NCBI GenBank assembly: GCA_965231015.1 | Contig: OZ246408.1 | Span: 921,908-985,907, forward strand | Length of the DNA: 64,000 bases | Direction: 5' to 3' | DNA from: an uncultured Gammaproteobacteria bacterium | GTDB lineage: Bacteria; Patescibacteriota; Patescibacteriia; UBA9934; CAZDDW01 | In this document: positions 30,215 through 51,354 of the stretch, in pieces | Position numbering within the stretch: the first letter of the stretch is position 1 | Layout of the letters: the number at the start of each line of letters is the position of its first letter | The notes under the pieces: model-generated | Databases searched by the model: none | Told to the model about the DNA's origin: nothing | What the model saw: the letters and a program-made list of their open reading frames with translations, nothing else | Made by a program: the position numbers and the translations under genes

Positions 30215-30240
30215 AAGATTATGCTTAAATAAACAAAAAT

Positions 30241-30260
30241 CTCCCCTCGATTGTGGGGAG
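30241..30260. promoter_or_regulatory. hairpin ctcccctcgattgtggggag immediately upstream of recombinase start; candidate operator/attI-proximal element
   Basis: perfect 6-bp stem 27 nt upstream of the ATG on minus strand. Confidence 0.25.
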
Positions 30261-30382
30261 TCTAAATTTAAGGTAACATAAGTTTGTGCTTTTGTAAAGG
30301 GGTTGTACCTCACAAATATCCCCAAGCCGCATAATCTACAGCATCCCATCCTTTATCCGAACTTTACTTCACATATAAACGA

Positions 30383-30421
30383 GTTGTGGCGAAATCGCTT
30401 CGCTCCTTCGCCACAACGGCC
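30383..30421 (+). repeat. 37-nt hairpin module gttgtggcgaaatcgcttcgctccttcgccacaac (copy 1)
   Basis: identical copy at 33059..33097; starts with GTTGTGG core. Confidence 0.7.
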
Positions 30422-30546
30422 GGCGGCTACGCCTTTTGTTGCGCTCGTCGCTACGCGACATCGCACAACAGTCAGCTATGCGGACATGGCCCGTCGACGA
30501 GCAAGCTCGTCTCCGGACCACGTCGCATAGCCGCCGGCCGTTATAT
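30411..30546 (+). repeat. attC-like site A (R'' CCACAAC, 15-bp arms ggccggcggctacgc/gcatagccgccggcc, R' GTTATAT then GAAAT)
   Basis: imperfect inverted repeat with AAC...GTT boundary cores seen directly. Confidence 0.6.
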
Positions 30547-30580
30547 GAAATAAATTTTTAAAAATTAACTCCGTAAAATT

Positions 30581-30937
30581 ATGAAACCACAAATTAAAGC
30601 GATATACATGTCCGTTAAGGATATGCAAAGAGCAGTAAAATTCTATGAGGAAATTTTTGATGTTAAAGTCTCTTCTTCTGATGAGAGGATGAGCTCTTTC
30701 GACTTTGAAAATATTTCCTTCCTTTTGTTTGATCCAAGTGCTGATGGTGAAGAGGCTTCAATTGGCAATAACGTTGTCCCAAATATTGAGGTGGAAGATG
30801 TTAATAAAATGTTAGATTTGATAAAACAGAAAGGTTGTGAGATTGTTATGCCATTGGAAGAAATCGATAAGTATTTGATTTTTCAAACAAAAGATACGGA
30901 AGGAAATATCATAGAATTTTACCAGATAGGCCGTTAA
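30581..30937 (+). CDS. VOC family protein (glyoxalase/bleomycin-resistance/dioxygenase fold), cassette 1
   Basis: 118 aa, betaalphabetabetabeta module pattern; MKPQIKAIYMSVKDMQRAVKFYEEIFDV. Confidence 0.7.
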   Translation: MKPQIKAIYMSVKDMQRAVKFYEEIFDVKVSSSDERMSSFDFENISFLLFDPSADGEEASIGNNVVPNIEVEDVNKMLDLIKQKGCEIVMPLEEIDKYLIFQTKDTEGNIIEFYQIGR

Positions 30938-30955
30938 TTTTTAAAAATTTACATC

Positions 30956-31100
30956 ACATAACAGCGTGTATCTGGTTCGGCAGATTTGACGCAATTAGAT
31001 TCAAAAGGAATGTCAAATCAGCCTCTCCCAAATTTCGCAAAAAACTATTAGATTTTCAAAGGAGTTTTTGCGAAACTTCAGATACACGCGGACGTTGTGG
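30956..31100 (+). repeat. attC-like site B (R'' ACATAAC, arms agcgtgtatctg/cagatacacgcg, R' GTTGTGG then CGAAAT)
   Basis: 12-bp near-perfect inverted arms immediately inside AAC/GTT cores. Confidence 0.65.
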
Positions 31101-31134
31101 CGAAATAATGAAAAATTCTTTTGCCCTATTGGGC

Positions 31135-31164
31135 AAATTTAATCGGGGCAATTTTTATTCATTT
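31135..31164. repeat. left copy of perfect 30-bp inverted repeat atttaatcggggcaatttttattcattttt
   Basis: reverse complement present at 32338..32367; brackets the ANT-like gene. Confidence 0.85.
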
Positions 31165-31173
31165 TTAACGCAT

Positions 31174-32349
31174 ATGAAGGGCATTAAAAAATACACACAC
31201 GAAGAAAGAGAAGCGGTTCTTTATGAAATGGTTCCGCTTATTAAGCGCAAGTTTGGAAAAAATCTTTTGGCTATTGCCGCGCGCGGATCATTTGCACGAA
31301 ACACAGATTTGCCATATTCCGATTTAGAGCTTTTTGCTTTCTTGAAAGAAATGCCACGCGGCCAGAAAAAACTTCCTTACGCAAAAATGCATAAAATCAG
31401 AAATGGCCTTTCTGTAGAGCTTATCTGGATTACTGAAAAAACATACATTAACGAAGTTAAAGAAGTTAACGGATCTTGGTTTGGTGTTGGCTCGGAAAAG
31501 CTCTTGCCTGTCTACGGTAAAAAATTCATTGACAAATTGAACCGACACAAGCCAAAGAATGTAAAACAAAAAGCTCTGGAACAAGCGGCGGCATTATGGC
31601 CGGGCATTTTCTTTTCAAGCTCTGCTGTTATAAAGATCGCGGAACAAAAAGATCATGAAAAGGTCGCCCTTGCCATGTATCACATGTTTGAAAACATTTT
31701 GAATTTTTTAGCATTTATCAACCAATCGCCATATTCAAGTAGCTCGCAAAAGATTATTGAATCCAAAAAATTCAAAATTAAGCCAAAAGATTTTTCAAAA
31801 CTACAACAACTGATACTTCATGGGGATTTTCGAAAATATACCGAGATTCAAAAATTAACAGCAAGCGTTGTTAAGGATCTAAAGGCATATCTCCAAAATG
31901 CAGGCTTTGAACCAAGCGAAGATCTTGTTAGTAAAAAACGACCCGACCAATTTGGTATGAAAGATAAAACGACTCGTTACGAGCAGGCCGTGGAGATATG
32001 GGAAAAGGTCCAAGAATCCACGACCAAAACCCTTAATGCCGCTGAAACAAAAAACAAAGAAGGTATGGCGACCGTTATTAATGACATGTTTTTTCAGTAT
32101 CTAAAAATTCTGTCCTGCCTGAATACAAAAACCTTAAGATTTTCACAAATCATCACCGACGCGAAAAAATTGAAATACAAACCGGCAGGATTCTCCAAGC
32201 TGATTAGAATTATCGAGAATGGAGAATACGGCCAATTTGTTGAGATCAAAAAAGTTGTCATGAGCGTTTTTGCTGGACTCGAGAGCAAACTTGAAAAGTT
32301 AGGATATGAATTCTATCAAGATAATGTAGATCCGAATAAAAATGAATAA
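31174..32349 (+). CDS. aminoglycoside 4'-nucleotidyltransferase-like (ANT(4')/KNTase family) with tandemly duplicated C-terminal helical domain, cassette 2 (ORF opens 31108)
   Basis: EEREAVLYEMVPLIKRKFGKNLLAIAARGSFARNTDLPYSDLELFAFL closely parallels KNTase REERMKIVHEIKERILDKYGDDVKAIGVYGSLGRQTDGPYSDIEMMCVM; residues about 185-300 and 305-413 are paralogous. Confidence 0.75.
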   Translation: MKGIKKYTHEEREAVLYEMVPLIKRKFGKNLLAIAARGSFARNTDLPYSDLELFAFLKEMPRGQKKLPYAKMHKIRNGLSVELIWITEKTYINEVKEVNGSWFGVGSEKLLPVYGKKFIDKLNRHKPKNVKQKALEQAAALWPGIFFSSSAVIKIAEQKDHEKVALAMYHMFENILNFLAFINQSPYSSSSQKIIESKKFKIKPKDFSKLQQLILHGDFRKYTEIQKLTASVVKDLKAYLQNAGFEPSEDLVSKKRPDQFGMKDKTTRYEQAVEIWEKVQESTTKTLNAAETKNKEGMATVINDMFFQYLKILSCLNTKTLRFSQIITDAKKLKYKPAGFSKLIRIIENGEYGQFVEIKKVVMSVFAGLESKLEKLGYEFYQDNVDPNKNE

Positions 32350-32367
32350 AAATTGCCCCGATTAAAT
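32338..32367. repeat. right copy of perfect 30-bp inverted repeat (overlaps ANT-like stop codon)
   Basis: aaaaatgaataaaaattgccccgattaaat = reverse complement of 31135..31164. Confidence 0.85.
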
Positions 32368-32403
32368 AATTCGCTATCGCGAATTAAGAATTTTCATTAC
32401 ATC

Positions 32404-32490
32404 GTACAACAGCGTGTATGAGACTACGGCTTTTTACAAAAGCCTCCGCCCAAATTGCTACGCAACTTCGCATACACGCGAACGTTAACT
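32404..32490 (+). repeat. attC-like site C (R'' GTACAAC, arms agcgtgtatg/catacacgcg, R' GTTAACT then GAAAT)
   Basis: seen directly; 87 bp. Confidence 0.65.
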
Positions 32491-32720
32491 GAAATTTGCC
32501 TTAATTACTTTCATAAATAACGTATGCATTTACTCAAAAAAATAATATCACCCATACTGTACGTAGCTTTTCTCGCCCCTGTCTTCATAGGCACTATTGC
32601 CGTTATTGCATTTTAGAATTTACTATTGGTCTGTCGAGTTTTATTCTAACAGGACTCCCAGAAGTATTTATCTCATTTATTGCAATAGGCGGTTTATTAT
32701 TTTGGTTAGCCAACAAACTA

Positions 32721-32945
32721 ATGACGGGACTCGAAAATCTACTCAAACCAAATATACTCGATCACCTTCGTCAATCATCTTTGTACTATTATACAGTAGT
32801 TTACGCATTAATTGCGCTAATACGGTCTGGCTATCACGGCGGTCTCGGAGAAGCATACATGCTAATTGGATTGGCAACTTCAGTATGGGCGATTATTGTT
32901 AATGCAATTTTTTTGTATAAACGACGTAAGGCAAACATCAGCTAA
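32721..32945 (+). CDS. small 2-TM membrane protein, cassette 3 (possible frameshifted longer form from 32524)
   Basis: 74-aa ORF; upstream frames encode MHLLKKIISPILYVAFLAPVFIGTIAVIAF and ...EFTIGLSSFILTGLPEVFISFIAIGGLLFWLANKL which join with a 1-nt shift near a tttt run at 32611. Confidence 0.4.
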   Translation: MTGLENLLKPNILDHLRQSSLYYYTVVYALIALIRSGYHGGLGEAYMLIGLATSVWAIIVNAIFLYKRRKANIS

Positions 32946-33065
32946 CACTGCGTATGCGGTTACGGCTTGCTCCGTGCCTCCGCAAGCCTCCACCCATATT
33001 TGCCACTGCTACCGCTTCGCGATATTATAGCAGTGGCAAACATCGCCTATTCACGGACGTTGTGG
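32940..33065 (+). repeat. attC-like site D (R'' AGCTAAC overlapping stop codon, internal stems ccactgcta/tagcagtgg and ggcttgc/gcaagcc, R' GTTGTGG then CGAAAT) followed by hairpin module copy 2 (33059..33097)
   Basis: seen directly. Confidence 0.55.
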
Positions 33066-33152
33066 CGAAATCGCTTCGCTCCTTCGCCACAACGGCCAAT
33101 AAATTCTTTTTATTTATAATTTGGGGGAGTTTTATTCTCGCTTCGTAAAAAT

Positions 33153-33674
33153 ATGTCAAAATCACTGAATATAAAATTTGAAAAAGCTGTGCGAATTTTG
33201 TCGGAATATATGCCACCGTCTGATGAAAATAGCAAAAAGCCTGTGATGTTTCACGACATACGCGTTGGCGTGTATTTATATGAAAATGGTTATTCAGAAG
33301 ATGTTGTTTTGGCTGGCATTTTGCACGATACGATTGAATGGTCTGGTGCTAACGAACAATTATTGAGAGATGAATTCGGCGACAATGTTGTCCGCTTGAT
33401 TTTTGCAAGCACCAAAGATGATACGATTGTAGACAAGGTGGAAAAAACAAACGAACTGATCCAAAGGTGTGTGCAAAACGGGCAAGAAGCTCTTATTGTA
33501 AAAACCGCTGATATTATTGATAGCTTCAAGTGGTATGCCAGCCAAAACAACGAGGACGAACTGAAAAACCATTGTGTAAAGAACGCCAACGCTATTTTCA
33601 AATTTAAACCGGAAGATTTTGACGATAAAATATTTGATGAGCTTAAAATCTGGCAAGAAAGATTTGCGGTATAA
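33153..33674 (+). CDS. HD-domain metal-dependent phosphohydrolase, cassette 4
   Basis: H...HD...D motif: FHDIRVG and GILHDTIEW; 173 aa. Confidence 0.7.
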   Translation: MSKSLNIKFEKAVRILSEYMPPSDENSKKPVMFHDIRVGVYLYENGYSEDVVLAGILHDTIEWSGANEQLLRDEFGDNVVRLIFASTKDDTIVDKVEKTNELIQRCVQNGQEALIVKTADIIDSFKWYASQNNEDELKNHCVKNANAIFKFKPEDFDDKIFDELKIWQERFAV

Positions 33675-33729
33675 AACCGAATAAAACTTCCCCAAATACA
33701 TTAAGGAAGGAAGAATTTATTGGCACATC

Positions 33730-33819
33730 GGACAACACGGCATATCCGGTTCAAGAATTTTTGTTCCTCCGCCAGCCAGCGGATACACAAAAACTTCGGA
33801 TGATGCCGATACGTTAGGC
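33730..33819 (+). repeat. attC-like site E (R'' GGACAAC, arms acggcatatccg/cggatgatgccg, R' GTTAGGC)
   Basis: seen directly; 90 bp. Confidence 0.6.
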
Positions 33820-33846
33820 GCAATATCATTTTAATCAATTTTCCTT

Positions 33847-34443
33847 ATGGCAGACACAATTCTACTAAACAACGAAGCTTATCATATTAGCGAGGACGAC
33901 CTTCCTTGCCTCATTCATTATGCACCGAAAGCTGGCGGGTCTCATTTCTCAGTAGCAATGGTCGCTGATTTGTTTTTGCGTGGCTCAAAAATTTTGTTTC
34001 TTACAGCATATCCAATGGCCAAGGATAATTTTTTACAACAGATTAAAGGAGAAGAATCAAAAACTGCTTTTATCACTAATGCGAGTCAGCTTAACACTGA
34101 TGCACAAGCAATTATTCTGGAAAGTGGCAACGAAAAGCTATTTCTGCAAGCGGTTGAAAAGCTGGATGATCTAAACGAGCGTGTCGTGCTTGTAAAAAAT
34201 ATAGAAGTGTTCAGCGACGCAGTTTTTGAATCTTGTTTGAAACTGCAAAAAATTATCCTTTCCGGCAACTTAGACGAGTGCTCAATGAAAAAACAAATCA
34301 GCGAGAAGCAATATAAAACGACTGTAGTTTTCAGCAAGTCAGAAACTCCATTAAAAGTCGAGCCACCAGAGCTGGAAAAATACAAAGGTTATCTTTGGAG
34401 CGACGGCAAGGAAGGTCTAGTATCAGTTCAAATGGAAAATTGA
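33847..34443 (+). CDS. hypothetical protein, cassette 5
   Basis: 198-aa ORF beginning 28 nt after R' core. Confidence 0.5.
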   Translation: MADTILLNNEAYHISEDDLPCLIHYAPKAGGSHFSVAMVADLFLRGSKILFLTAYPMAKDNFLQQIKGEESKTAFITNASQLNTDAQAIILESGNEKLFLQAVEKLDDLNERVVLVKNIEVFSDAVFESCLKLQKIILSGNLDECSMKKQISEKQYKTTVVFSKSETPLKVEPPELEKYKGYLWSDGKEGLVSVQMEN

Positions 34444-34503
34444 TTAAAATGATACTCTTCGCCCGCCCTTCGGGACGTTGCACTCGGGCTCGACCTGCGG
34501 CGC

Positions 34504-34620
34504 GCCTAACACAGAATATGCGGTTTCACTCCCGTTGGTCGCTACACCCATATTTGCCAGAGGTCGCCCTTCGGGCATATTATACCGCTGTCAAACATCG
34601 CATACTGCGGAACGTTAGGC
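34504..34620 (+). repeat. attC-like site F (R'' GCCTAAC and R' GTTAGGC perfectly complementary; arms cagaatatgcg/cgcatactgcgg; then GAAAT); possible extra degenerate core GTTGCAC at 34477
   Basis: seen directly; 117 bp. Confidence 0.7.
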
Positions 34621-34671
34621 GAAATAATTTTCGGGGGCTACGTAAGATAACTTTTATTTACTTTAAACAAT

Positions 34672-35319
34672 ATGTCCAAAGTAATGAATCCAAAAATCAA
34701 AATCAAAGAAACTGCACTTCTTGTTATTGATGTCACTAACGCATGGGCTCATCCAACTTGCGAGATTAAAAAGTGGGATGTTACATTTGGGAAAATCCGC
34801 AAAATGGTCCCAAAACTCCAGAAATTCATTAAAGATTATCAATCAGTAGGTGGTAATGTTATTTACATAAAAAGCACACCTTGGGATAAGAAACATTTAG
34901 CCAAAAATCTTATTGAGTTTTACAAAGATCCTGCGGTTTGTTTTTATTCAAGAAATATTTATTCAGACAAAGTCAGAAAGTTTTCAGATGAATTTTACAA
35001 AATAAGTCCTGAAAAAAATGATGTTGTTCTTGAAAAAAACAGTTATGATGCTTTTGTTAATCCACAACTCAATAAGATTTTGAAAAAGAAGAAAATTAAG
35101 TATCTTATCCCGACCGGAGTTTTGGGAGATGGTTGTGTACACGCAACAATTCAGGGCGGATTTTCCCAAGGATATAATTATCTCATTCTAAAAGATTTAG
35201 TTGAAACAACAGATTTACCAATCAGACAAAGATTGATAAAAATGATGAGAGAATTCTATTGGCCCATGCTTTATGGAAAAACTATCAATGCTAAAAGTTT
35301 CTTTGATTTTGTGGAGTAG
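34672..35319 (+). CDS. isochorismatase-family cysteine hydrolase, cassette 6
   Basis: ALLVIDVTNAW (catalytic Asp region) and LIPTGVLGDGCVHATIQGG (catalytic Cys). Confidence 0.75.
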   Translation: MSKVMNPKIKIKETALLVIDVTNAWAHPTCEIKKWDVTFGKIRKMVPKLQKFIKDYQSVGGNVIYIKSTPWDKKHLAKNLIEFYKDPAVCFYSRNIYSDKVRKFSDEFYKISPEKNDVVLEKNSYDAFVNPQLNKILKKKKIKYLIPTGVLGDGCVHATIQGGFSQGYNYLILKDLVETTDLPIRQRLIKMMREFYWPMLYGKTINAKSFFDFVE

Positions 35320-35390
35320 AACGCCCCCGAAAATTACTTGCTCACTTCGTTCGCACCCCGCTGCGCTCTCCTCCCGTTGGTCGTCGGATC

Positions 35391-35455
35391 ACTTAACAAG
35401 GATTATGAGGAAAATGGCTCGGCTCGGCATTTTCCTCATAATCCTGACGTTAGGA
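35391..35455 (+). repeat. attC-like site G1 (R'' ACTTAAC, perfect 18-19-bp arms aaggattatgaggaaaatg/cattttcctcataatcct, R' GTTAGGA)
   Basis: seen directly; 65 bp. Confidence 0.7.
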
Positions 35456-35529
35456 CGCCATCGCGAGCTACGCTCGCTCTCGTCGTCCGCCGGTGGCGGC
35501 CACTTCGCATCAGTCGCAGCCCGTTATGT
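35456..35529 (+). repeat. GC-rich palindromic repeat G2 ending GTTATGT GAAATAA (same end-class as site A)
   Basis: last 30 nt align with 30517..30553 (tcgcatNagNcgcNgcc GTTATRTGAAATAA). Confidence 0.55.
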
Positions 35530-36423: not shown

Positions 36424-36465
36424 AGAGGGATCAAAATTATCATATTCTGGTCCCTCGTATTTTTT
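36424..36465. terminator. bidirectional terminator between NUDIX and radical SAM genes
   Basis: agagggatca...tggtccctc hairpin with aaaaa before and gtatttttt after. Confidence 0.6.
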
Positions 36466-37939
36466 AACCAGCCTCGAAACAAAATGGCTGGTCAGATGGC
36501 TCAATACCAATCTGATAGTCGTCAGCCAACTTCTCCAATAATGCATTCAAGGAAATCTGACCGGGCATACAGAATTTACAGTGGATGCCTAGCTCTTTAC
36601 CGGCAGCACTCCGCATAATGTCGGAAAAATTACAACCATCGCTGATTTGGCCAAGAACGTATTCTCGTGGTGACTTAGAGCGAGTATACGGCTCTCCAAT
36701 GGAATCGCAGGCTCCCACAATACCGAAAGGATCAATTGCCGGTCTTATTACTGGAATTAAGCAACGCTTTGGTTGCGTCAATTCCATCTCTCCCCATTTG
36801 TCCATCGCAATCAGGAGATCATCGGCAAATGACACACTGAAACCCAGCTGACCATTTTCGATTTGAGAACGCAATTCACGCAAACTTTCAAGCATTTCCT
36901 CATATTGATAACTTGAAAGTTCTCTGGTTACACCGATACAGTCCACCCTCACATCAAGGAAATCAATTTCAAGATCGGAACAAAGTTTCGCCACACCGGC
37001 TACTTCTGCATAGTTTAACTCCTGTAAAACTATACCTATCCCAACCTTCAACCTTTCACCTCGTTGCTTTTTGAGAGCCACGATTTTTCTTATCCCGTTC
37101 AGCACGGCTTCCAAATCATTGGCTCCCAAGGAGCGATTGATAAGTCTTGAATAAATCTCTGGTGTCGCCGCATGTATACTGATTCTCAACCAAGTAGAAC
37201 TTAAGACGGAATCTAGTAACTCTTGATTTAAGCCACAAAGCGTCCGGCCATTGGTGTAAATCATGGTTTCAAGACCAATGGAGTTAGCCTTGTCTAGAAC
37301 CGGCTTGATCTTGGCTTGCGACAGCAAGGTTTCACCACCACCAGAGAATATAATCTGCCTGGTGCCTAAACCTTTTACCTCCTCCAAAATCTTGCACCAT
37401 TGATCTGGCGTGAGCAAGCGCTCTGCCCCATAAAAGTCAGCGACAGGATTTCTTTGCTTTTGGCCACCACACCAAATGCACATCTGACACCTATAAATGC
37501 AAATGGCGTCAGTGGGATGAATTTCCAGCATCATGGGTCCTACTATTTCTCCCCGCAGGATTTTAGGCAAATATTGAGAATTTTGCCGCATGAAACCCAG
37601 TAGGTTCGTGGCAGATTTGATTAGCAAAGATCTTGGATACTGATTGCTCAGAAATACCGCCTTTGCTAGTTTTGACTCCCGCATAAAACGATGTGTAGAC
37701 AACAACTCGTCTCTCGAAATTTCCTTGTGACGCAAGATTGATTTTGCTTTACGCGCTGGGTCAAAGAAATATTCAACCAAGACAGAAAAAGTCAAGCCAA
37801 ACGATTTGTCATTTAAAACAGTCTCTACACCCATAAATAACTCATAGGCTTGACCTTCGGCTTCGTCAAGGTTGATAAGACCATCGTGAAAACGATGCAT
37901 TATATCAACCAACTTTGCAACAGCACTGTTCTCTAACAT
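36464..37939 (-). CDS. radical SAM protein with about 130-aa N-terminal extension; function unknown
   Basis: Cx3Cx2C (CIYRCQMC), GGE-type motif FSGGGETLL, C-terminal Cys pairs (HCKFC). Confidence 0.8.
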   Translation of the reverse strand: MLENSAVAKLVDIMHRFHDGLINLDEAEGQAYELFMGVETVLNDKSFGLTFSVLVEYFFDPARKAKSILRHKEISRDELLSTHRFMRESKLAKAVFLSNQYPRSLLIKSATNLLGFMRQNSQYLPKILRGEIVGPMMLEIHPTDAICIYRCQMCIWCGGQKQRNPVADFYGAERLLTPDQWCKILEEVKGLGTRQIIFSGGGETLLSQAKIKPVLDKANSIGLETMIYTNGRTLCGLNQELLDSVLSSTWLRISIHAATPEIYSRLINRSLGANDLEAVLNGIRKIVALKKQRGERLKVGIGIVLQELNYAEVAGVAKLCSDLEIDFLDVRVDCIGVTRELSSYQYEEMLESLRELRSQIENGQLGFSVSFADDLLIAMDKWGEMELTQPKRCLIPVIRPAIDPFGIVGACDSIGEPYTRSKSPREYVLGQISDGCNFSDIMRSAAGKELGIHCKFCMPGQISLNALLEKLADDYQIGIEPSDQPFCFEAG

Positions 37940-38192
37940 GATCTCATCTCCTTTATCGAGGTTAGTTGTTTTTTAAGGAACATAAGACTAATTTAGTCGT
38001 TAAAACAACATATCATAGCACGAATGATCAATCAAGGATTTAAATAATAATTTGTACTAATTTTGTAATTATTACAAAAAATATAATACTATTAAATACA
38101 AGGAGTCTTGGCTTTTGCGCATTCACCCCCACCCCTCTGCCCCTACGCCAAGACGAAAAAAAATTTGTTAATTTAGGACGCCATCGCGAGCT

Positions 38193-38221: not shown

Positions 38222-38258
38222 TCCGCTCGCTCTCGGCGCGATGCATCGAGAAACAAAA

Positions 38259-38315
38259 AAAGCGGAGCCCCCCTCAGCCGTAGCCCTACAGGCGAGGCCT
38301 GACTCCGCCCCAGTA
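38259..38315 (-). terminator. probable terminator of permease operon
   Basis: minus-strand stem gcggag...ctccgc followed by ttttttt. Confidence 0.4.
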
Positions 38316-38334: not shown

Positions 38335-40020
38335 TTAAAACAGCCAGTTCAGCAAATAGCCGATAATTATTATTCCTACAGTCACTAAACCGAAAAAGGT
38401 GACAAGTAACTGCCATTTAAGCACTTTTTTTAAAATCAACCCCGCGGGAAAAGAAAGCCCGATCACCCCCATCATAAAAGCGATTGCCGTTCCCAAAGGC
38501 AAACCTTTGGCCACTAAGGACTGAATCACGGGAATAATGCCGGCCGCGTCAGCATACATGGGAACCGCCAAAACCGCCGCCACAGGAACCCCTAAATACC
38601 CCGCCTTTTCCAAGTACACCTCAAAAAAACCTTCCGGTACATATCCGTGAATGACAGATCCCAAACCAACACCAACCAAAATATACAAACCGATTTTTTT
38701 AATGATCCCAAAAGCTTCTTGAGAAATTTTAGGAAAAATTTTTGCGAGCGGCTCTGTTTTTGTTTCCGATTGATTTTGCGTTGGCGCGTGAACTTTCCAC
38801 ACAAAATCTTCCACATACTTTTCCATTTTCAATTTTCCTAAAATAAAACCACCCAGCATGCCAATCGTAATGCCGGCCAACACGTAAGCCACGGTCACTT
38901 GCCAACCAAAAATACCAAGAAACAGGGCAATAGAGACCTCATTAACCAGCGGAGAAGTGATAATAAAAGCAAAAGTCACCCCCAGAGGGATGCGAGCTTC
39001 TAAAAAGCCAATAAACAGCGGGATGCTGGAACAAGAACAAAACGGGGTCAAGGCTCCAAAAATACTGGCGAAAAAATAATCCAATCCGAATAGTTTTTTT
39101 TCGGTTAAGAAATTCCTTAATTTTTCAACCGGCAGATAATATCGTAGCGCGCTTACCAAATGCATAATGACCAACATCAACGCGAAAATTTTCAAAATAT
39201 CGTAAATGAAGAATTGTACACTGTGCCCAAGGCGTGATCCCGCTTCAATATTGAAAATGGAAAAGGTCACCCAGTCAGCAAAAACCTCAAACGGATAAAA
39301 AATATCCAACTTTTCCACGCCAAAAGTATACTTGAGGTAATACAAGCCGGTGCCGATAAAAAGAAAAGCAACCATATATCTGAGCCATTTTTCTATTTTT
39401 CTGGTAATCTGATACGCCTGACTCATTTTTTGCAGACTGAAAACCATAAGGCCGGCAAAAATCGCCACCGGCAGACCGGTGCCAATGGCAAAAACCGGGG
39501 CCAGTAAAATTCCAGCGGTTGATTTTAAAATCAGCGGTACGAGCATGCCAAAAAACAGTACTCCGCTATAAGGACAAAAAGCCAAAGCGAAAATCATCCC
39601 CAAGCCCAGTGAACCCAAGTAGCCTTTACCCGAAAGCCACTGTTTGAATTTTTCCCATTTTTCACTTTTGACATTAAAATTTATTTTGAAAACTCCCAGC
39701 ATAAAAAGCCCCATGACAAGCAACACTGGAGCGAGTAGTTTTTCGCCCCAGCCCTGAAAAATCCCTGAAACAGTAAAAGAAGAAAGTCCGAGAAAAATCA
39801 AACCGGCAACCAAGGTATATGAGACTCCCCGACCGATGATATAAAACAGCGCGTTCAGGAGTGTATTTTTGGCGGTTTTTATGTCTTTAGACAAAAAACC
39901 AACCGCGGCGATATTGGTCGCCAACGGACAAGGACTGATGGAAGTCAAAATGCCCAAGAGAAATGCCGTCAAGAGCGGAATGTTATATGAATCGATCAGT
40001 AAATTAATCAGGTTTTCCAT
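38335..40020 (-). CDS. fusion membrane protein: N-terminal CcdA/DsbD-like domain + C-terminal DUF318/ArsP-like permease
   Basis: ISPCPLATNIAAVGF (CcdA-type Cys) and TPFCSCSSIPLF (ArsP-type TPFCSCS motif); 561 aa, more than 12 TM segments. Confidence 0.7.
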   Translation of the reverse strand: MENLINLLIDSYNIPLLTAFLLGILTSISPCPLATNIAAVGFLSKDIKTAKNTLLNALFYIIGRGVSYTLVAGLIFLGLSSFTVSGIFQGWGEKLLAPVLLVMGLFMLGVFKINFNVKSEKWEKFKQWLSGKGYLGSLGLGMIFALAFCPYSGVLFFGMLVPLILKSTAGILLAPVFAIGTGLPVAIFAGLMVFSLQKMSQAYQITRKIEKWLRYMVAFLFIGTGLYYLKYTFGVEKLDIFYPFEVFADWVTFSIFNIEAGSRLGHSVQFFIYDILKIFALMLVIMHLVSALRYYLPVEKLRNFLTEKKLFGLDYFFASIFGALTPFCSCSSIPLFIGFLEARIPLGVTFAFIITSPLVNEVSIALFLGIFGWQVTVAYVLAGITIGMLGGFILGKLKMEKYVEDFVWKVHAPTQNQSETKTEPLAKIFPKISQEAFGIIKKIGLYILVGVGLGSVIHGYVPEGFFEVYLEKAGYLGVPVAAVLAVPMYADAAGIIPVIQSLVAKGLPLGTAIAFMMGVIGLSFPAGLILKKVLKWQLLVTFFGLVTVGIIIIGYLLNWLF

Positions 40021-40023
40021 AAA

Positions 40024-40650
40024 TTAGAAGATTAGATTACTTGGCTCCGTAAGCGCGTACAAGAACGCGCTTCTGTATTTGCGAACTTTTTTCCCTTGTT
40101 CATTAATCGGTACCATAAGTTGAAAGCCGTCCGTGCATTCCTCCCATGGCGCAAGCCAGATATTACCGTCTTCATAATCGCAGTCTTTAAATGTCAGGCT
40201 CAATTCGGGATAAGCTTGCTCAATTTCGGTGGGAGCGCAGGTGTTAACGGTAAAATCACGCAAATCGTTAACTGAAACGATTTTTTTGCGCGGCGCGATC
40301 AAGGTATAAATTTCAGCACCGATTTTTTTCTCATATGTCTCCGGGACAATTTCATCAGGGTCGGCTTTTCTGCCAACAAGAGCCAGATCAATATTTTCCG
40401 CTTTCAATTCGTTTAAAGTCATTTCCGCGCTTCCGAATTCCATCATTACCAATTCCGGATTTTGGTTTTGTAAATTCAAAGCTTCCGGTGCCATGGTCGG
40501 ACAATAACCCAGTCTGATTATTTCAGGCGTCTCTACTTCATAACTATTTGCGTCAGCGGTTACGGCGGATTGTTGACCGCAGCCACTCAATAAAAGAACC
40601 GAGAATAGTAAACAAAATAATTTTTTCATAATTAGCCGAACATTAACCAT
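40024..40650 (-). CDS. lipoprotein of unknown function
   Basis: signal peptide plus lipobox LLSGCGQQ. Confidence 0.55.
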   Translation of the reverse strand: MVNVRLIMKKLFCLLFSVLLLSGCGQQSAVTADANSYEVETPEIIRLGYCPTMAPEALNLQNQNPELVMMEFGSAEMTLNELKAENIDLALVGRKADPDEIVPETYEKKIGAEIYTLIAPRKKIVSVNDLRDFTVNTCAPTEIEQAYPELSLTFKDCDYEDGNIWLAPWEECTDGFQLMVPINEQGKKVRKYRSAFLYALTEPSNLIF

Positions 40651-41873
40651 TCCGGTTTGAACAATAACAACAAGCCGATGATCACCATGGCGATTCCTCC
40701 GATCAGATGAGAAAGACGGCTGTATCTGTCTGAAAAGCCGGTAATTTTCAGAGTTATCATAGCGGTGAAAAAAATCAATAGATCATCCAACATGAAGATA
40801 AAAATATAGAACAACAAGTAGCCATAATATTGCCAGAGGGGTAATTGGCTTAGCGTTAGAATTTGCGTATACACGGCGGGCAATCCGGCCGAACAAATCA
40901 GCTCGACAAGGTTTACCGCGACAGCCAGTAAAATAATACCTAAAAGAGCGATGAAAAAATTCTTTTCATGAGTCAGCTGTTTCAGCTTTTCAAAGACGCG
41001 CTGACGCTTCTTGCCTCCGGTGACCGCGCATCCGGCGTGGGGATTAAAGAAATATTCTTTAAGATAATAGCCGCCTCCGCCAAGCGCTACCAAACCGATA
41101 ATAATTCTCACAATAAGAATGAACCCGATAAACAGAAGCAAATTCAACCATGCGGAAAGGAATAAAAAGTAAACCGCGGCCGAGGTGACGATAAAAGCGA
41201 TCCCGAGCATCCACATTCTGCGTCGGTTTTTCATGCCGATAAGCAGACTGATCAGGAAAAGCAGAGTCCACATGGCACACGGATTAAATCCGTCCAAAGC
41301 GGCGATGATAAAGGTAAGTACGGGTAAAGAAATATTTTTGGTCTTAATTTCTCCCACCAGCGGCAAGGTCAGAGTCTCGGGAATTTTTGAGGAAGTGAAG
41401 GTATCCTCGTCCGATTCCGATGTTGTTCCGTTGATCTCTACACCGACATCGCGGCACGAATTGCCGATCGCACAATTGATTGCTTCCTCGATTTGCGCAC
41501 CCGTGTTTTTCTCGTCCATCCAGCCGATAACATAACGCTCACCGACCACAGTAAACGGCACACCGCTCACATTAGCGTTTAGCTTTTTGCCAAATTCAAT
41601 CATTAAATCTCGATTTTCAGCATTGCCCCATATTTCGTAATCATGCACCAAAAGCTCGGGATATTTTTCTTCCATGCGCTCCAAAAAAGGTTTTTCCTTC
41701 GCACAGTGCGGACAGCCTTCGCCCCAGAAGAAATACAAATTAACCGTCTCTTCAATAACAGTCCCGTTGTCATGAACAGTCCCAACGTCTTGCGCCTGCG
41801 TGGGTATGGCCACCAACAAACACAAAACAGCCAAAAGTGAAATGATAATTTTTTTCATAAAACAGAAAATCAA
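40632..41873 (-). CDS. thioredoxin-domain / CcdA (DsbD-like) fusion membrane protein
   Basis: signal peptide, WGEGCPHCAKEKPFL CxxC thioredoxin motif, then TM domain with DGFNPCAMWTL. Confidence 0.75.
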   Translation of the reverse strand: MIFCFMKKIIISLLAVLCLLVAIPTQAQDVGTVHDNGTVIEETVNLYFFWGEGCPHCAKEKPFLERMEEKYPELLVHDYEIWGNAENRDLMIEFGKKLNANVSGVPFTVVGERYVIGWMDEKNTGAQIEEAINCAIGNSCRDVGVEINGTTSESDEDTFTSSKIPETLTLPLVGEIKTKNISLPVLTFIIAALDGFNPCAMWTLLFLISLLIGMKNRRRMWMLGIAFIVTSAAVYFLFLSAWLNLLLFIGFILIVRIIIGLVALGGGGYYLKEYFFNPHAGCAVTGGKKRQRVFEKLKQLTHEKNFFIALLGIILLAVAVNLVELICSAGLPAVYTQILTLSQLPLWQYYGYLLFYIFIFMLDDLLIFFTAMITLKITGFSDRYSRLSHLIGGIAMVIIGLLLLFKPEWLMFG

Positions 41874-42328
41874 TTTAACAGATTATCAAGTTTGTCTTTA
41901 AAATACGTTTTGAACTTTTGCTCATCTCCGACTAAGCGCCAGACGGTTGTGTCTTCCGTGATATTGTCCTGACCATCCGTAATCGCGTTGATAAAGAGCG
42001 AGCTTCCGCGAGCCTGATATTGAATCACTGTTTCCCGATTCTCGGACAATTCACCGTTGACCGAAAGAAAGGTTATTTTTCCCGCGGCCATTTCTTCTAT
42101 GAAAAATTCTTCAATGGTTTCGCGCGCGTATTGTTCCACCATTTGGCACGAAGGGCAACGGCGAGTACCATGAAAATCCACCACCTCAATTCTGTCCGCT
42201 TTGACCTCTGCCAAATCTGACGACGCAGAGGCTTGAGAGCCGTTCCCGTTTGATTGTATTGTATTTCCGCAACCCGCCAAAAGTGAAGAAAAAACAAAAA
42301 GTGTAAAAATTATAAAAGTTTTTTTCAT
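41870..42328 (-). CDS. thioredoxin-like lipoprotein
   Basis: lipobox LLAGCGN; CPSC motif (RRCPSCQMVEQ). Confidence 0.6.
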   Translation of the reverse strand: MKKTFIIFTLFVFSSLLAGCGNTIQSNGNGSQASASSDLAEVKADRIEVVDFHGTRRCPSCQMVEQYARETIEEFFIEEMAAGKITFLSVNGELSENRETVIQYQARGSSLFINAITDGQDNITEDTTVWRLVGDEQKFKTYFKDKLDNLLN

Positions 42329-42342
42329 AGTTTATGTTTGAA

Positions 42343-42633
42343 TTAACAATTACCTCCGCAAGAACAGCCGCCTGAGGTTTTTTCATTTTCGGAAGCACAA
42401 CCTTCCTTGATCATTTTTTCAATCTCATCGTTTGACGGCACTTTTCCCGCGGCCATGATCTTGCCGTCGATGGCAAAAACCGGACTACCCATTGCGCCGA
42501 GCTTGACTATTTCTGCGATATCGGTGGAATATTCCACCTCCGTGTCCATGCCGAGTTTGTTGACCACTTCTCTTACATTTTTATGGAGAGTCTTGCAAGT
42601 GGGGCAACCCGAACCCAAAACTTGAATTTTCAT
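42343..42633 (-). CDS. small thioredoxin-family protein (redox-active disulfide protein, CPTC) with Cys-rich C-terminal tail
   Basis: MKIQVLGSGCPTCKTL; tail GGCSCGGNC. Confidence 0.7.
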   Translation of the reverse strand: MKIQVLGSGCPTCKTLHKNVREVVNKLGMDTEVEYSTDIAEIVKLGAMGSPVFAIDGKIMAAGKVPSNDEIEKMIKEGCASENEKTSGGCSCGGNC

Positions 42634-42959
42634 AATTTGGAAATTAAAAAATTATTTAATAACGAAGCGTATTGTTTGATGACATTTTTATTGGATGAGT
42701 AAATGATTTTTCTACCTTCTTGGTCGTCTTGTTTCGAATCGATCAAGCCAAAACCTTTAAGGACTTTCAAGTGATGCGAGGCCAGATTCTGGGGGATTTC
42801 GAGCGTCTTCCAGATATCGCAAACACACCGTTCATCCTCTCGAAGCGAGCAAAGTATTTTGAGACGATTCGGCTCGTTGATGATTTTAATAAATTCCGCT
42901 ACCTTTTCAAGGTCGGTTTTTAATTTCGAGCCATTTTTACAGCATGGAACATTTTTCAT
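42630..42959 (-). CDS. arsR: ArsR/SmtB-family metalloregulator
   Basis: wHTH plus CVCDI metal(loid)-binding motif (cf. ArsR ELCVCDL). Confidence 0.8.
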   Translation of the reverse strand: MKNVPCCKNGSKLKTDLEKVAEFIKIINEPNRLKILCSLREDERCVCDIWKTLEIPQNLASHHLKVLKGFGLIDSKQDDQEGRKIIYSSNKNVIKQYASLLNNFLISKL

Positions 42960-43153
42960 GATGCAAAGTCAATTATATCAATGGTTGTTGATATACTATC
43001 AAGGGCAATACTTTCAGTCAAGCATGACAATTGCATGGATTGACTACACAAATCAATATAACATAGGCGGAAGAAATCCCCCGCCCATGTTGACCTAATT
43101 ATAGCCTTGAAAAAGGTTTAATTCCTGTTTTTCCCCACCTTAAATAAGGCTCT

Positions 43154-43182
43154 TGACACAATTTACCCTTTAAGCTAAAATA
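43154..43182 (+). promoter_or_regulatory. consensus sigma70 promoter upstream of 16S rRNA
   Basis: TTGACA -17 bp- TAAAAT. Confidence 0.5.
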
Positions 43183-43392: not shown

Positions 43393-44878
<1,486 letters not shown>

Positions 44879-45372: not shown

Positions 45373-47820
45373 TCAGGTTTTCGCCGGACCTGAGTTACTG
45401 GAAGGATCATTGTCGTCGTCGGCCGAGTTGCCGCGACGCTTGGACGTGGACTCCGAACCGAGTGAACTCGACTCCTCGATCGAGCCGGAGTCGCCGTAGA
45501 CCGGCAACTCTTGAGCTTCAGTACCGTACTCGGGCATCCCCTCAGTCGTAGCCGCGGCCATGCTGGCCGAGTCATCAGGCTCGTCTTCGTCCGGATCAAC
45601 CAAGGATTGTTCCGAGGTATCCGGCTCGCCTTCGAGCTCGATGCTGCCGTCCGGATCGTGATACGACTCCTCGTCCGAGGGAACAAGCGCGATGCGTTGT
45701 TCCTGACTCGGCGTGCCAAGCGTAGTGTCCTCCCTCACACTGCCCTCGTCGATCTCCTCGGCCACGTCCGTGATGGGCGGTGGCGTGGGATCGACCATGA
45801 CCGGTGCCTCGACCTCTCGGTGCGAAAGCCCGGAGATGTCACGGGTTGGTGGAGGGGTGTCGACCGCTTCGTCCACAGTATCGAGATGAATCGGTGGAGC
45901 CGAATCTCCGACACTCGACTCGTCGTCTTCGTCCTCCGGACACCGACTCGGTCGCTCCTCGGTGGTATCACCCTCGAGTTCCGACTCCGGTTCAATTCCC
46001 GGTTCCGGAATTGGAATGCCGTCCTCGATCGCCTGCAGGCTGGCCGAAAGCGGTATCTCGGGCAGCTTTCCCCTGAAGCGAGGATGCTGCGGCGGCTTGG
46101 CCTCCGGGTCAGACGCATCAACGGTCTGCTCGGAAGGGAGATCCGAAGTGGTGAGCATCTTGAACTCATCAGACTCCGCCTCGTCTCCCTCACCTCCGGA
46201 CGGATCCGAGCTACTGCTCGAATCCGACTCATCAAACGACGAGGGCATGCTCATCATGGCAATCTCCTCGTCGGAGTTGGGCGGACCGTCATCCCGGAAG
46301 GCCTCTCCCTCTTCGTACTCGTCCAGTTCCCCAGCCGGAATGGCCGGTGGTGGAGCGGGTAGTTGCACGAGGGTGAAGTTGATCTTGGTAAGATCAAACT
46401 CTCGGGAGGTGATCTCGGCCTCGATCCTCATCATGGCTTCAACCATAGCCTCGCACAAGTCGATACTGCGGTTGATCGCGATCTTCTGAGCATCTGTGAA
46501 GAAGTCAAACACCTCACTGGCTTCGCCCTGCGGCAGAGCCAGATACACGGCCATGGCCGCGTTATCGAGGCATGCCAACTCTTCGAACTGACGCCGCGAG
46601 GTCGCGGTCGTGGTGCGACCCACGTGCTCGATGATGTCTGCGTGAGGCTGACGTACCGTAGCATGGTACAGGTGGAAGGCATAACGCGCGAACTCGTCGA
46701 GCTCGGAGCATTGACTGTCGGTGAGGGTCTGCTCCGGACTCTGCCGGCCAAGGATGCGCACGATGTCCGCCGGACGGATCATACGCAGATCCATCTGCCG
46801 GGCCACCCGAGCAAACACGTCCGGGTTGTGCTGGTACACGCGGCGCAGGAACTCCACGAGCTCCGGCGCCGAGTAGAACTCGAACGTCCAGACGAGCAGG
46901 CGTACCCACGTATTCAGGAGACGTGGTGGCAGCTCCTGGGGAGACCAGAACGGTTCACCCTGGGAGATGTACATGGCCGTACGGATAGTATCCGACCAAG
47001 GCACGTGCACAGCTGTCACAGCCGGCCGGATTCCGAGAGCCGGATCGATCCCGATCTCGGCCATCACCTGACGGTAGGCGTGATCGACCCCCATGAGGTC
47101 GTACCCCTGGGTAGCAAACACGAAACCGTTTAGATCCCCTTCCTGGTGCAAGAACGGGCTCACCGCCTTGAAGGGCTGGTGTAACTCTGCGGCCTGCAGG
47201 AACGAGACCCGCGTTTCTTCACTCGGTGCAGCGAGCGCCGTGAAATGGCGGGTCATCTCCGGGGATTGGATCCGGGCGAGCGTCAGCACAGCGTCGTCTT
47301 CCGTGTACACCCCAGTGCCGAACCGTCCCGTTGCAGCGTACCCGGGCAATTCCCGCTCGGTCATGATCTCCCGAATCCAGCCGGTCATTTGCCGGTTGAA
47401 CTCCTCGGGCTTCAGCGCCCCGGTCGACTGATCGATCGACATCATGGCGATGTACTCCAGCAGCTGACCAATGGCCGCCTCCTGAAGCTGCATGATGCTA
47501 GCGATCTCGCGGGCCTCGCGCCGGCGGTTCGTATCACGAATCAGCTGGGCTCGCAGGAAGCGCATGCGCTTGGCCTGCTCACCAATGAGGTTGCGATAGA
47601 AGTCCGGGAGTTCGATTCCCTGCTGCTCGGCCAGTCGGTACACCAGATCCGAGAACTCGTGATCCGGATCCCCGGCCGGGCGGTGCGCGATGATGCGCGG
47701 GTCGATAAGCGGTCGGGCACCGTTGATGACCCCGAGCTCCTTGAGGGCCTCGACGAGGTCATCGCCGAGGTAGTGCCGATATACGGCTTCCACTTCTTCG
47801 TTTCTGTCCTGCTCCAACAT
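45373..47820 (-). CDS. hypothetical 815-aa protein in about 63% GC island; folded N-terminal about 500 aa plus about 320-aa acidic S/D/E/P-rich disordered C-terminus
   Basis: single long minus-strand ORF spanning the island with its own terminator; plus-strand ORFs are Arg/Leu-rich antisense artefacts. Confidence 0.6.
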   Translation of the reverse strand: MLEQDRNEEVEAVYRHYLGDDLVEALKELGVINGARPLIDPRIIAHRPAGDPDHEFSDLVYRLAEQQGIELPDFYRNLIGEQAKRMRFLRAQLIRDTNRRREAREIASIMQLQEAAIGQLLEYIAMMSIDQSTGALKPEEFNRQMTGWIREIMTERELPGYAATGRFGTGVYTEDDAVLTLARIQSPEMTRHFTALAAPSEETRVSFLQAAELHQPFKAVSPFLHQEGDLNGFVFATQGYDLMGVDHAYRQVMAEIGIDPALGIRPAVTAVHVPWSDTIRTAMYISQGEPFWSPQELPPRLLNTWVRLLVWTFEFYSAPELVEFLRRVYQHNPDVFARVARQMDLRMIRPADIVRILGRQSPEQTLTDSQCSELDEFARYAFHLYHATVRQPHADIIEHVGRTTTATSRRQFEELACLDNAAMAVYLALPQGEASEVFDFFTDAQKIAINRSIDLCEAMVEAMMRIEAEITSREFDLTKINFTLVQLPAPPPAIPAGELDEYEEGEAFRDDGPPNSDEEIAMMSMPSSFDESDSSSSSDPSGGEGDEAESDEFKMLTTSDLPSEQTVDASDPEAKPPQHPRFRGKLPEIPLSASLQAIEDGIPIPEPGIEPESELEGDTTEERPSRCPEDEDDESSVGDSAPPIHLDTVDEAVDTPPPTRDISGLSHREVEAPVMVDPTPPPITDVAEEIDEGSVREDTTLGTPSQEQRIALVPSDEESYHDPDGSIELEGEPDTSEQSLVDPDEDEPDDSASMAAATTEGMPEYGTEAQELPVYGDSGSIEESSSLGSESTSKRRGNSADDDNDPSSNSGPAKT

Positions 47821-50886: not shown

Positions 50887-51354
50887 CTAGCGGGCAACCT
50901 CAATTTCGTCTGTTCGTTCCGGATAACAGGCTCCTACCGCCAATATTCCATTAGTGTTACGGCGGATATAATACCCGGTTTTTTCCGGGGTTCCATAGAG
51001 ATAATCGTATGGAATCTTACCCAAATAACCCTCTTCCCATAAACGTGACATATCAACACAGGATTCCTGGGTTAACACATCACCACAAAACTCACCCCCT
51101 GAAAGACACGTGCCAATCTGATAATTATGTCCGGGATAAAGAGTATACAAGGCAGTGGTAGAATATCCAGCGTGATCTACCTCATCAATCCGAATGGCGT
51201 GGATAATTGACTCTACATCTGACGACCGTTGTGCGTCACGGGCCTCTGCAAACCGTCGTGGTGGATCAAGTAAAACCAAAATAATCGTTAGGATGATTGC
51301 AATTATTCCTAACACGATTAATAACTCCACCAGTGTAAAGCCTTTTTTATTCAT
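50887..51354 (-). CDS. type IV prepilin
   Basis: class III signal MNKKGFTLVELLIVLGIIAIIL (G|F cleavage, Glu+5). Confidence 0.8.
   Translation of the reverse strand: MNKKGFTLVELLIVLGIIAIILTIILVLLDPPRRFAEARDAQRSSDVESIIHAIRIDEVDHAGYSTTALYTLYPGHNYQIGTCLSGGEFCGDVLTQESCVDMSRLWEEGYLGKIPYDYLYGTPEKTGYYIRRNTNGILAVGACYPERTDEIEVAR

Follow-up and report, generated by a model that had tools for sequence, protein, structure and literature searches.

The 64,000-nucleotide stretch of DNA analysed here (the window; positions 921,908 to 985,907 of contig OZ246408.1, assembly GCA_965231015.1) comes from a bacterium of the candidate phyla radiation (CPR; Patescibacteriota). It contains six minus-strand open reading frames (ORFs) that follow each other head to tail from position 42959 to 38335, in the order arsR-arsE-arsF-[P4]-[P5]-arsG::arsP. 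The arsR gene (42959-42630) encodes a protein of 109 aa with the motifs VPCCKNG and ERCVCDIW. It is followed by arsE (42633-42343; 96 aa), with a GCPTC motif and a GGCSCGGNC tail, and by arsF (42328-41870; 152 aa), which has an LLAGC lipobox and an RCPSC sequence within the motif FHxxxRCxxC. P4 starts at 41858 (408 aa, from an ATG) or 41873 (413 aa), ends at 40632, and combines a signal or anchor segment, a GCPHC motif and a polytopic membrane half. P5 (201 or 208 aa, from 40629 or 40650 to 40024) has an LLSGC lipobox, and the last gene (40020-38335; 561 aa) encodes a fusion of ArsG and ArsP with the motif TPFCSCS. Neighbouring genes overlap by up to 4 nt or are at most 14 nt apart, as would be expected of a single operon. 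On the plus strand, a bacterial 16S rRNA gene (43394-44878) lies 434 nt from the arsR start. The six minus-strand genes with their coordinates and cysteine motifs, as well as the 16S neighbour, had been described in an earlier reading of this stretch (the original prediction), and all are present as given there.

The same operon, with identical proteins, was assembled independently from three sequencing runs. A copy of the six genes that is about 80% identical is found in another locus (L089), where the flanking genes are entirely different, so that the six genes can be considered a real unit. Close homologues are almost all from CPR/Patescibacteria assemblies. The exact fusion protein is also on record on an NCBI contig of 1,002,985 bp, which fits the small, "minimal" genome assumed in the original prediction. 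Downstream of the operon, RNA folding revealed an intrinsic-terminator-like hairpin followed by U7 (38255-38311, minus strand), 24 nt past the stop codon of the fusion gene; its folding energy is -30.6 kcal/mol, with a z-score of -2.19 relative to shuffled sequences. A radical SAM gene (36464-37939) was considered as a further operon member and rejected, because the terminator-like hairpin separates it from the fusion gene, it has its own promoter-like site and it is absent from the L089 copy.

The ArsR, ArsE, ArsF, ArsG and ArsP families

ArsE matches PF13192 (Thioredoxin_3) with 82.4 bits, as expected from its original description as a small CPTC thioredoxin, and TIGR00412 ("MTH895/ArsE family") with 89.3 bits for a cut-off of 62. 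The CPTC motif occupies residues 10-13, and a CxxC is present in 74 out of 74 homologues; the tail cysteines (GGCSCGGNC) are found in only 5-14 of them. A weak resemblance to ArsD is seen at the C-terminus (23 bits, the cut-off being 27). ArsE lacks any hydrophobic segment and, judging from signal peptides, is predicted to be cytoplasmic. In an Uhrbacteria contig (L007, 6935-10126), the gene order is DUF2703 - thioredoxin - P4 - ArsP_1, and the CSCGGNC tail of the window's ArsE recurs at the end of the stop-to-stop frame in which the DUF2703 gene lies.

ArsF matches NF040494 ("nitrophenyl compound nitroreductase subunit ArsF family") with 97.1 bits for a cut-off of 60. Its CxxC, within the motif FHxxxRCxxC, is conserved in all 44 homologues, 39 of which have an N-terminal hydrophobic segment. 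In every phylum examined, ArsF bears a signal peptide or lipobox; the ArsF proteins of Prevotella and Fulvitalea annotated by the Prokaryotic Genome Annotation Pipeline (PGAP) have signal peptides too. Searches against solved-structure profiles gave consistent, individually non-significant thioredoxin/glutaredoxin-like matches (E 0.01-0.4), and the Pfam Thioredoxin family is matched at E 0.2; a thioredoxin fold is likely for ArsF. The original prediction had counted three thioredoxin-fold proteins in the operon. This assignment holds for ArsE by its Pfam match and for the N-terminal domain of P4 by its structural model, and only weakly for the CPSC lipoprotein, ArsF. In several Bacteroidota (L021 2615-3526, L038 9416-10333, L071 1468-2424), ArsF is fused to an exported rhodanese domain, with a Cys-rich linker and the rhodanese active-site loop CQKGGRS. 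A separate rhodanese gene (L179, 6283-6777) follows the permease-thioredoxin pair in the arsenic island of strain NT-25.

The first domain of the fusion protein (residues 11-229; 39334-39990, minus strand) is of the six-helix DsbD_2/CcdA type. It scores 266.3 bits with the equivalog model NF040495 ("aromatic aminobenzylarsenical efflux permease ArsG"; cut-off 200) and 57.4 bits with PF13386 (DsbD_2). C31 (SPCP, helix 1) and C149 (FCPYS, helix 4) are both present in 41 out of 41 homologues, and the two halves of the domain align with these cysteines in register (hhalign probability 35%), forming a pseudo-repeat of the DsbD type. The second domain (residues 265-558; 38347-39228, minus strand) matches PF03773 (ArsP_1) with 201.4 bits. 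Its TPFCSCS motif corresponds to residues 325-331 (39028-39048). The CxC is found in all 81 homologues, within an FG..TPFCSCS.PLF sequence that is 97-100% conserved, the TPFCSCS core positions reaching 100%. These scores bear out the CcdA-like domain fused to an ArsP-like permease proposed in the original prediction. The ArsP domain reaches no equivalog model (SaoE, 113.6 bits for a cut-off of 325; SO_0444, 78.7 bits for a cut-off of 300). By the positive-inside rule, which is a crude guide, both domains would start outside, and the fusion would be topologically consistent. ArsG::ArsP fusions of about 561 aa, at least 63% identical, form only about 20 clusters at 90% identity; as a separate protein of 323 aa, the permease occurs very commonly in CPR bacteria. 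One fusion homologue carries a precomputed match to the CadD family (PF03596).

A locus survey with one genome per species produced 80 loci, 79 of which were counted after removal of a duplicate; the six-frame ORFs of these loci were matched with the window proteins. ArsE accompanies ArsP in 71 of the 79 loci. There are 42 loci with ArsF and 39 with ArsG, and in 38 of the latter ArsF immediately precedes ArsG. The commonest gene orders are R-E-P and R-E-P-F-G (25 loci each), and the order of the window, R-E-F-G-P, occurs in three further loci. The module is found across CPR bacteria, Bacteroidota, Lentisphaerae and Dadabacteria, as well as on plasmids. Examples from cultured organisms bear out the family names: PGAP annotates ArsR-thioredoxin-ArsF-ArsG-permease on the Fulvitalea axinellae plasmid pFA1 (NZ_AP025315.1), in the order of the window and unfused, and a regulator-ArsF-ArsG-thioredoxin-permease-ArsC-ACR3 string on the plasmid of Prevotella nigrescens F0103 (NZ_CP072340.1). 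A permease-thioredoxin pair lies beside arsRCDAB on a Klebsiella IncFII plasmid, and a permease-thioredoxin-rhodanese set in the arsenic island of the arsenite oxidiser NT-25. Among the fetched loci, 18 contain Acr3 and 12 an ArsC of the low-molecular-weight phosphatase type, mostly in Bacteroidota; 17 and 9 of these, respectively, are within the 80 genome loci. Experimental data exist for two related systems: in P. mercurii ND132, As(III) and As(V) induce the transcription of an arsR-arsP-arsE operon (preprint, bioRxiv 10.1101/2022.10.17.512643), and C. jejuni ArsP has been shown experimentally to efflux methylarsenite, MAs(III), and trivalent roxarsone, Rox(III) (review PMC6205960). In other phyla, gene context gives good support for the arsenic connection of the module; for the present organism we can only infer it.

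The original prediction had taken the cluster as a puzzling relay. Profile searches and neighbourhood comparison identify it as the named arsR-arsE-arsF-arsG-arsP module, which had not been recognized there, and the operon of the window is a lineage-specific variant of this known, widespread module, with an ArsG::ArsP fusion and with P4 and P5 inserted. The description of the relay as unusually elaborate can be retained for the fusion and for the inserted P4 and P5, and not for the widespread ArsE/ArsF/ArsG plus ArsP set.

The regulator matches PF01022 (HTH_5) with 55.9 bits and the ArsR/SmtB subfamily model NF033788 with 72 bits for a cut-off of 55. C45 and C47 (the CVC of helix alpha-3) appear to align with the CVC of E. 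coli ArsR; together with the family scores, this agrees with the ArsR with metal-site cysteines of the original prediction. The third cysteine of the R773-type S3 site (CVCDLC) is missing, W50 being found in its place. The N-terminal pair C6 and C7 is conserved in CPR/Lentisphaerae-type homologues, whereas Bacteroidota homologues have a CC in helix 3 and a C-terminal cysteine instead. By analogy, the N-terminal CC could supply the third ligand, and the combination of CC and CVC would presumably resemble the arrangement of C. glutamicum ArsR or the alpha3N site of CadC. The model of the persulfide/sulfite sensor BigR gave only 38 bits for a cut-off of 155, and the CmtR model was also far below its cut-off.

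A putative sigma-70-type promoter, recognized as a consensus match only, precedes arsR on the minus strand (42993-43021), with TTGACT at 43021-43016, a 17-nt spacer, TAGTAT at 42998-42993 and a TG before the -10 element. In front of arsR in L089, L009, L010, L014 and L030, a TTGAC-like -35 element is found at the corresponding position. An inverted repeat, ATATCAA-N6-TTGATAT (42975-42994), extends into the end of the -10 element; 18 nt separate the end of its core from the arsR ATG. In 8 of 11 CPR-type loci, the TCAA-N6-TTGA pattern either precedes the arsR reading frame or overlaps its start, in surroundings that have diverged; the pattern occurs only twice in the whole window. The repeat is therefore a good candidate for the operator of an autoregulated ArsR. 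A GC-rich hairpin of 14 bp is located further upstream of the arsR promoter (43060-43091, minus strand). On the other strand, a near-consensus TTGACA-17-TAAAAT sequence (43153-43181) points towards the 16S gene, whose 5' end is about 210 nt away; this sequence may be the rRNA promoter.

The inserted proteins P4 and P5

P4 is composed of a signal/anchor segment, an extracytoplasmic thioredoxin-fold domain with a CPHC motif and a membrane domain of six predicted helices. Over 6000 homologues were found, with identities of 60-84%, and nearly all of them belong to CPR bacteria. The residues invariant in the alignment are C49 and C52 (CPHC), C194 (NPC), C277 and C322 (ELICSAGLP). C194 falls in helix 1 and C322 in helix 4, and C277 lies in a basic loop that is probably cytoplasmic. 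The N-terminal domain was modelled by AlphaFold2 with a pLDDT of about 90 and matched thioredoxins in Foldseek (target TM-score 0.6-0.69), in support of the thioredoxin originally assigned to the CPHC domain of the 413-aa protein. Its best relatives by sequence among solved structures are DsbA proteins. Longer forms of the family (520-570 aa) carry extra thioredoxin or glutaredoxin domains, and family members are present among loci L004, L005, L007, L008 and L094-L173.

Two CcdA/DsbD domains had been proposed for the operon. That of the fusion protein stands with its DsbD_2 match, whereas that of P4 found no support. The membrane half of P4 belongs to no Pfam family, and P4 matched neither DsbD nor DsbD_2 in Pfam, even at E = 10, nor any NCBIfam model. 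Alignment of P4 with ArsG by hhalign gave a probability of 6%. The two halves of its membrane domain, compared with each other, gave 0.1% versus 35% for the ArsG control, indicating no internal repeat. Profile searches against solved-structure sequences matched only thioredoxin and DsbA-like domains. Foldseek retrieved only thioredoxins with the full P4 model and nothing with the membrane domain alone, for which the model itself is of low confidence. Membership of P4 in the CcdA/DsbD family was therefore rejected as unproven. A CcdA-like role is nevertheless a possibility suggested by topology, helix count and the placement of the cysteines in helices 1 and 4.

P4 is linked to ars-type genes in only 6-9 of 48 long metagenome loci, mostly among its closest relatives, and the idea that it is an integral, always-linked component of the system was abandoned for this reason. 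A thioredoxin reductase gene lies directly upstream of P4 in four loci (L008, L004, L133 and L162), with a glutaredoxin gene just upstream of it in the first three; the contig of L162 is truncated. These upstream genes hint that P4 may receive cytoplasmic reducing power.

P5, a lipoprotein of a small family, has a single close homologue, located in the same operon in L089. An exhaustive HMMER search retrieved 166 distant relatives, and the family alignment shows a shared LGYCPTM motif with an invariant cysteine. Distant homologues, 32-35% identical, lie between P4 and ArsG in L088 (3-1198) and, in L093 (3-1698), are flanked immediately upstream by an ArsP_1 permease and downstream by a 4Fe-4S ferredoxin. 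From these arrangements, the P5 family appears to travel with such permease systems. Searches with Pfam, NCBIfam and solved-structure profiles for the fold of P5 gave only non-significant hints of a periplasmic-binding protein.

Function of the operon

The operon is most likely an arsenical- or soft-metalloid-inducible efflux system. More precisely, we consider it on balance probable that an autoregulated six-gene ArsE/ArsF/ArsG plus ArsP operon of a CPR bacterium handles trivalent (organo)arsenicals or similar thiophilic metalloids by means of cysteines. Family memberships, cysteine conservation, gene linkage and compartments (the latter judged from signal peptides) are directly established; the scheme that follows adds to them a predicted inducer, substrate, direction of transport and order of action from ArsE to ArsG to ArsF. 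ArsR would sit on the inverted repeat overlapping the -10 element and be released once a thiophilic inducer binds its CC and CVC cysteines. The ArsP domain would export the toxic species via its membrane-embedded CxC pair. Cytoplasmic ArsE, with its CxxC and, in this clade, its Cys-rich tail, would serve both the permease and ArsG, in the role of thiol reductant or of a chaperone that carries the substrate. ArsG, with one cysteine per pseudo-repeat, would relay thiol-disulfide or thiol-ligand exchange through the membrane to ArsF, the lipoprotein on its outer side, and P4 and P5 could extend this surface thiol network.

Thioredoxin to CcdA/DsbD to ResA, CcmG or ScsC pathways are reductive pathways. 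The ArsE-ArsG-ArsF set has a similar architecture, because ArsE lacks a hydrophobic segment, ArsF is exported and ArsG, between them, bears the CcdA hallmark: a cytoplasmic thioredoxin-fold donor, a six-helix DsbD_2 protein with one cysteine per pseudo-repeat and an adjacent extracytoplasmic CxxC acceptor can all be recognized. The window differs from these pathways in having no cytochrome c or copper-stress context, in its tie to a permease and in an acceptor that belongs to a distinct family, and the flow of electrons is a prediction. A thiol relay from ArsE to ArsG to ArsF is plausible and probably operates; in two loci (L008 and L004), glutaredoxin and thioredoxin reductase genes are located inside the cluster, in keeping with the logic of a relay. 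Since ArsE also accompanies ArsP in the 25 R-E-P loci that lack ArsF and ArsG, it probably acts on the permease itself. By analogy with known systems, it would probably keep the CxC of ArsP reduced, or deliver a thiol-bound substrate as ArsD does for ArsA. The Cys-rich ArsE tail of CPR bacteria and the Cys-rich linker of the rhodanese-ArsF fusions of Bacteroidota suggest direct metal(loid) binding.

A bolder version, which we put forward tentatively and regard as rather unlikely in its entirety, is that ArsE, ArsG and ArsF form a CcdA-type relay serving ArsP, together with P4 (as the CPR counterpart of DsbD/DsbB) and P5, the whole being an arsenical-inducible machine that protects or resets surface cysteines. 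Such a relay serving the exporter would explain why ArsG and ArsP can fuse into one polypeptide. If this version is true, P4 represents a family of membrane oxidoreductases that had not been described before and that occurs throughout the CPR, and P5 a family of cysteine-bearing lipoproteins that travels with ArsP_1 permeases.

The >6000-member P4 family and P5 may belong to the management of surface cysteines in ultra-small bacteria. Thousands of genomes have their arsenic resistance annotated under the ArsEFG and ArsP names, and the mechanism behind these names is thin; the export of ArsF, its obligate pairing with ArsG and the association of ArsE with ArsP together point to a transmembrane thiol relay. 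If the ordinary reading is true, the locus adds one more arsenic-type resistance operon, in a CPR genome.

Several points weigh against an arsenical efflux operon equipped with a relay. No arsC, acr3, arsB or arsM was found in the window ORFs searched. The search for an arsenate reductase elsewhere, suggested as a check in the original prediction, was made together with one for Acr3, by phmmer with Prevotella ArsC and Acr3 queries, and neither was detected in the window ORFs; no arsenic-resistance family was found among 30 window ORFs scanned against Pfam. ArsC and Acr3 were not found in the CPR-type genome loci either. The ArsP domain reaches no equivalog-level model, and PF03773 also holds Cu/Zn and selenium-linked exporters; the substrate of the domain is a prediction. 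ArsR lacks the third R773-type cysteine, and its CC plus CVC set also fits Cd/Pb/Zn-type (alpha3N) sensors. The Cys-rich tails and linkers favour metal(loid) binding over pure electron transfer, and either electrons or a ligand may be passed along the chain. Finally, ArsG has been described as an efflux permease and not as an electron conduit.

The ArsEFG organoarsenical resistance genes were reportedly described in Shewanella putrefaciens 200 (said to be the subject of Chen, Zhang & Rosen 2019, Environ Sci Technol 53:6182). The window resembles that system in the matches above cut-off to TIGR00412, NF040494 and NF040495, in the co-localization of the genes under an ArsR-family regulator, and in the invariant CxxC motifs of ArsE and ArsF and the two invariant transmembrane cysteines of ArsG. 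It differs by the fusion of ArsG to ArsP_1, the presence of P4 and P5 between arsF and arsG, the Cys-rich ArsE tail and its origin in a CPR bacterium, with ArsC and Acr3 not found among the window ORFs. The Fulvitalea and Prevotella plasmids have the same five families, with a signal peptide on ArsF and, in Fulvitalea, the gene order of the window; there, ArsG and the permease are separate, P4 and P5 are absent, protein identity is about 45%, and the Prevotella cluster lies inside a classical ars operon. Like C. jejuni ArsP, the permease of the window belongs to PF03773, has an invariant, membrane-embedded CxC (which we take to be the functional pair of the Campylobacter protein) and is encoded with an ArsR-family regulator. 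Unlike it, it is the C-terminal half of a fusion, has a Thioredoxin_3 partner (71 of the 79 loci) and stays below the equivalog models.

Taken literally, the published ArsEFG model would have ArsE and ArsF reduce the nitro group of trivalent roxarsone or nitarsone and ArsG pump out the resulting aminoaryl arsenical, with ArsP adding methylarsenite efflux. The NCBIfam names of the families, whose models the window proteins match above cut-off, agree with it. ArsEFG is published as an organoarsenical resistance system, going by the title of the paper cited in PMC9144182, and in the latter, a review, ArsG appears as an efflux transporter, with organoarsenical resistance attributed to ArsE and ArsF. 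However, ArsE is predicted to be cytoplasmic and ArsF exported in all phyla examined, which makes one soluble enzyme unlikely; neither has a flavin or metal cofactor domain, each offering only a CxxC; and ArsG bears the hallmarks of a CcdA-type thiol shuttle. ArsF outside and ArsE inside would fit a transmembrane thiol relay better than a two-subunit nitroreductase. Moreover, nitroaromatic arsenicals are synthetic compounds of the twentieth century, yet the conserved module is shared by CPR bacteria, Bacteroidota, Lentisphaerae and Dadabacteria. We consider the literal model unlikely. Much the same doubt applies to a general role in extracytoplasmic thiol-disulfide maintenance, in which electrons would flow from ArsE through ArsG to ArsF and from a cytoplasmic donor to P4, and ArsR would sense thiol or oxidative stress. 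The resemblance to the thioredoxin-CcdA-ResA pathway speaks for it, as do the CPR-wide occurrence of P4, mostly away from ars genes, the glutaredoxin and thioredoxin reductase genes upstream of P4 and the DsbA-type CPHC motif of P4 with its DsbA matches. On the other hand, the obligatory partner across the 79 loci is an ArsP_1 permease with a CxC, the module is repeatedly found in arsenic islands, the related ND132 operon responds to arsenic and the BigR score of ArsR is far below the cut-off.

The same machinery might also serve another thiophilic metal (Cd, Zn, Cu, Hg or Sb). The CC and CVC of ArsR recall the alpha3N sites of CadC-type sensors, PF03773 includes the Cu/Zn exporter SO_0444, to which the ArsP domain scores 78.7 bits, one fusion homologue matches the CadD family, and ArsE tails and the linkers of some ArsF proteins are Cys-rich. 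The SO_0444 and CmtR models are nevertheless far below their cut-offs, and in other phyla the module is linked to ArsC, Acr3 and ArsDAB, not to cad, czc, cop or mer genes; another metal is an improbable substrate. Far less probable still is a mer-like uptake route, by which ArsF or P5 would capture a thiol-reactive substrate at the surface and hand it, through the cysteines of ArsG and ArsP, to cytoplasmic ArsE for processing inside. Paired cysteines are indeed found outside, within the membrane and in the cytoplasm, as in MerP-MerT-MerA, and P5 gave weak periplasmic-binding-protein hints and has a distant relative adjoining ArsP_1; the Cys-rich tails and linkers, and the weak ArsD-like match of the ArsE C-terminus, add a likeness to the ArsD metallochaperone. 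Yet the families are unrelated to those of the Mer and ArsD systems, no cytoplasmic reductase, lyase or methyltransferase was found among the operon and window ORFs examined, the characterised PF03773 members are exporters, and the hints on the P5 fold stay below significance. The direction of transport is probably export, not import.

Other features of the window

An integron-like array occupies positions 29393-35500. It starts with a tyrosine recombinase gene (29393-30349, minus strand), followed by plus-strand cassettes that encode a KNTase-like nucleotidyltransferase, an HD_4 protein, an unknown protein, an isochorismatase and a NUDIX protein. The cassettes are separated by attC-like imperfect palindromes: GTTGTGGCGAAATCGCTTCGCTCCTTCGCCACAAC is present at 30383 and 33059, and related copies at 31073, 32463 and 34577. 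The 20-mer TTAGGACGCCATCGCGAGCT is located at 35450 and again at 38173-38192, just beyond the operon terminator.

The stretch that directly follows the 16S gene has a GC content of 53-61%, versus about 44% in the rest of the window. It contains a minus-strand ORF (45373-47820) that encodes an extremely acidic protein of 815 aa with no Pfam match, and several long overlapping ORFs in other frames. A type IV pilin-like protein with an N-terminal methylation motif is encoded at 50887-51354 (minus strand), and a reverse-transcriptase (RVT_1) fragment lies at the window edge (63381-63902, minus strand).

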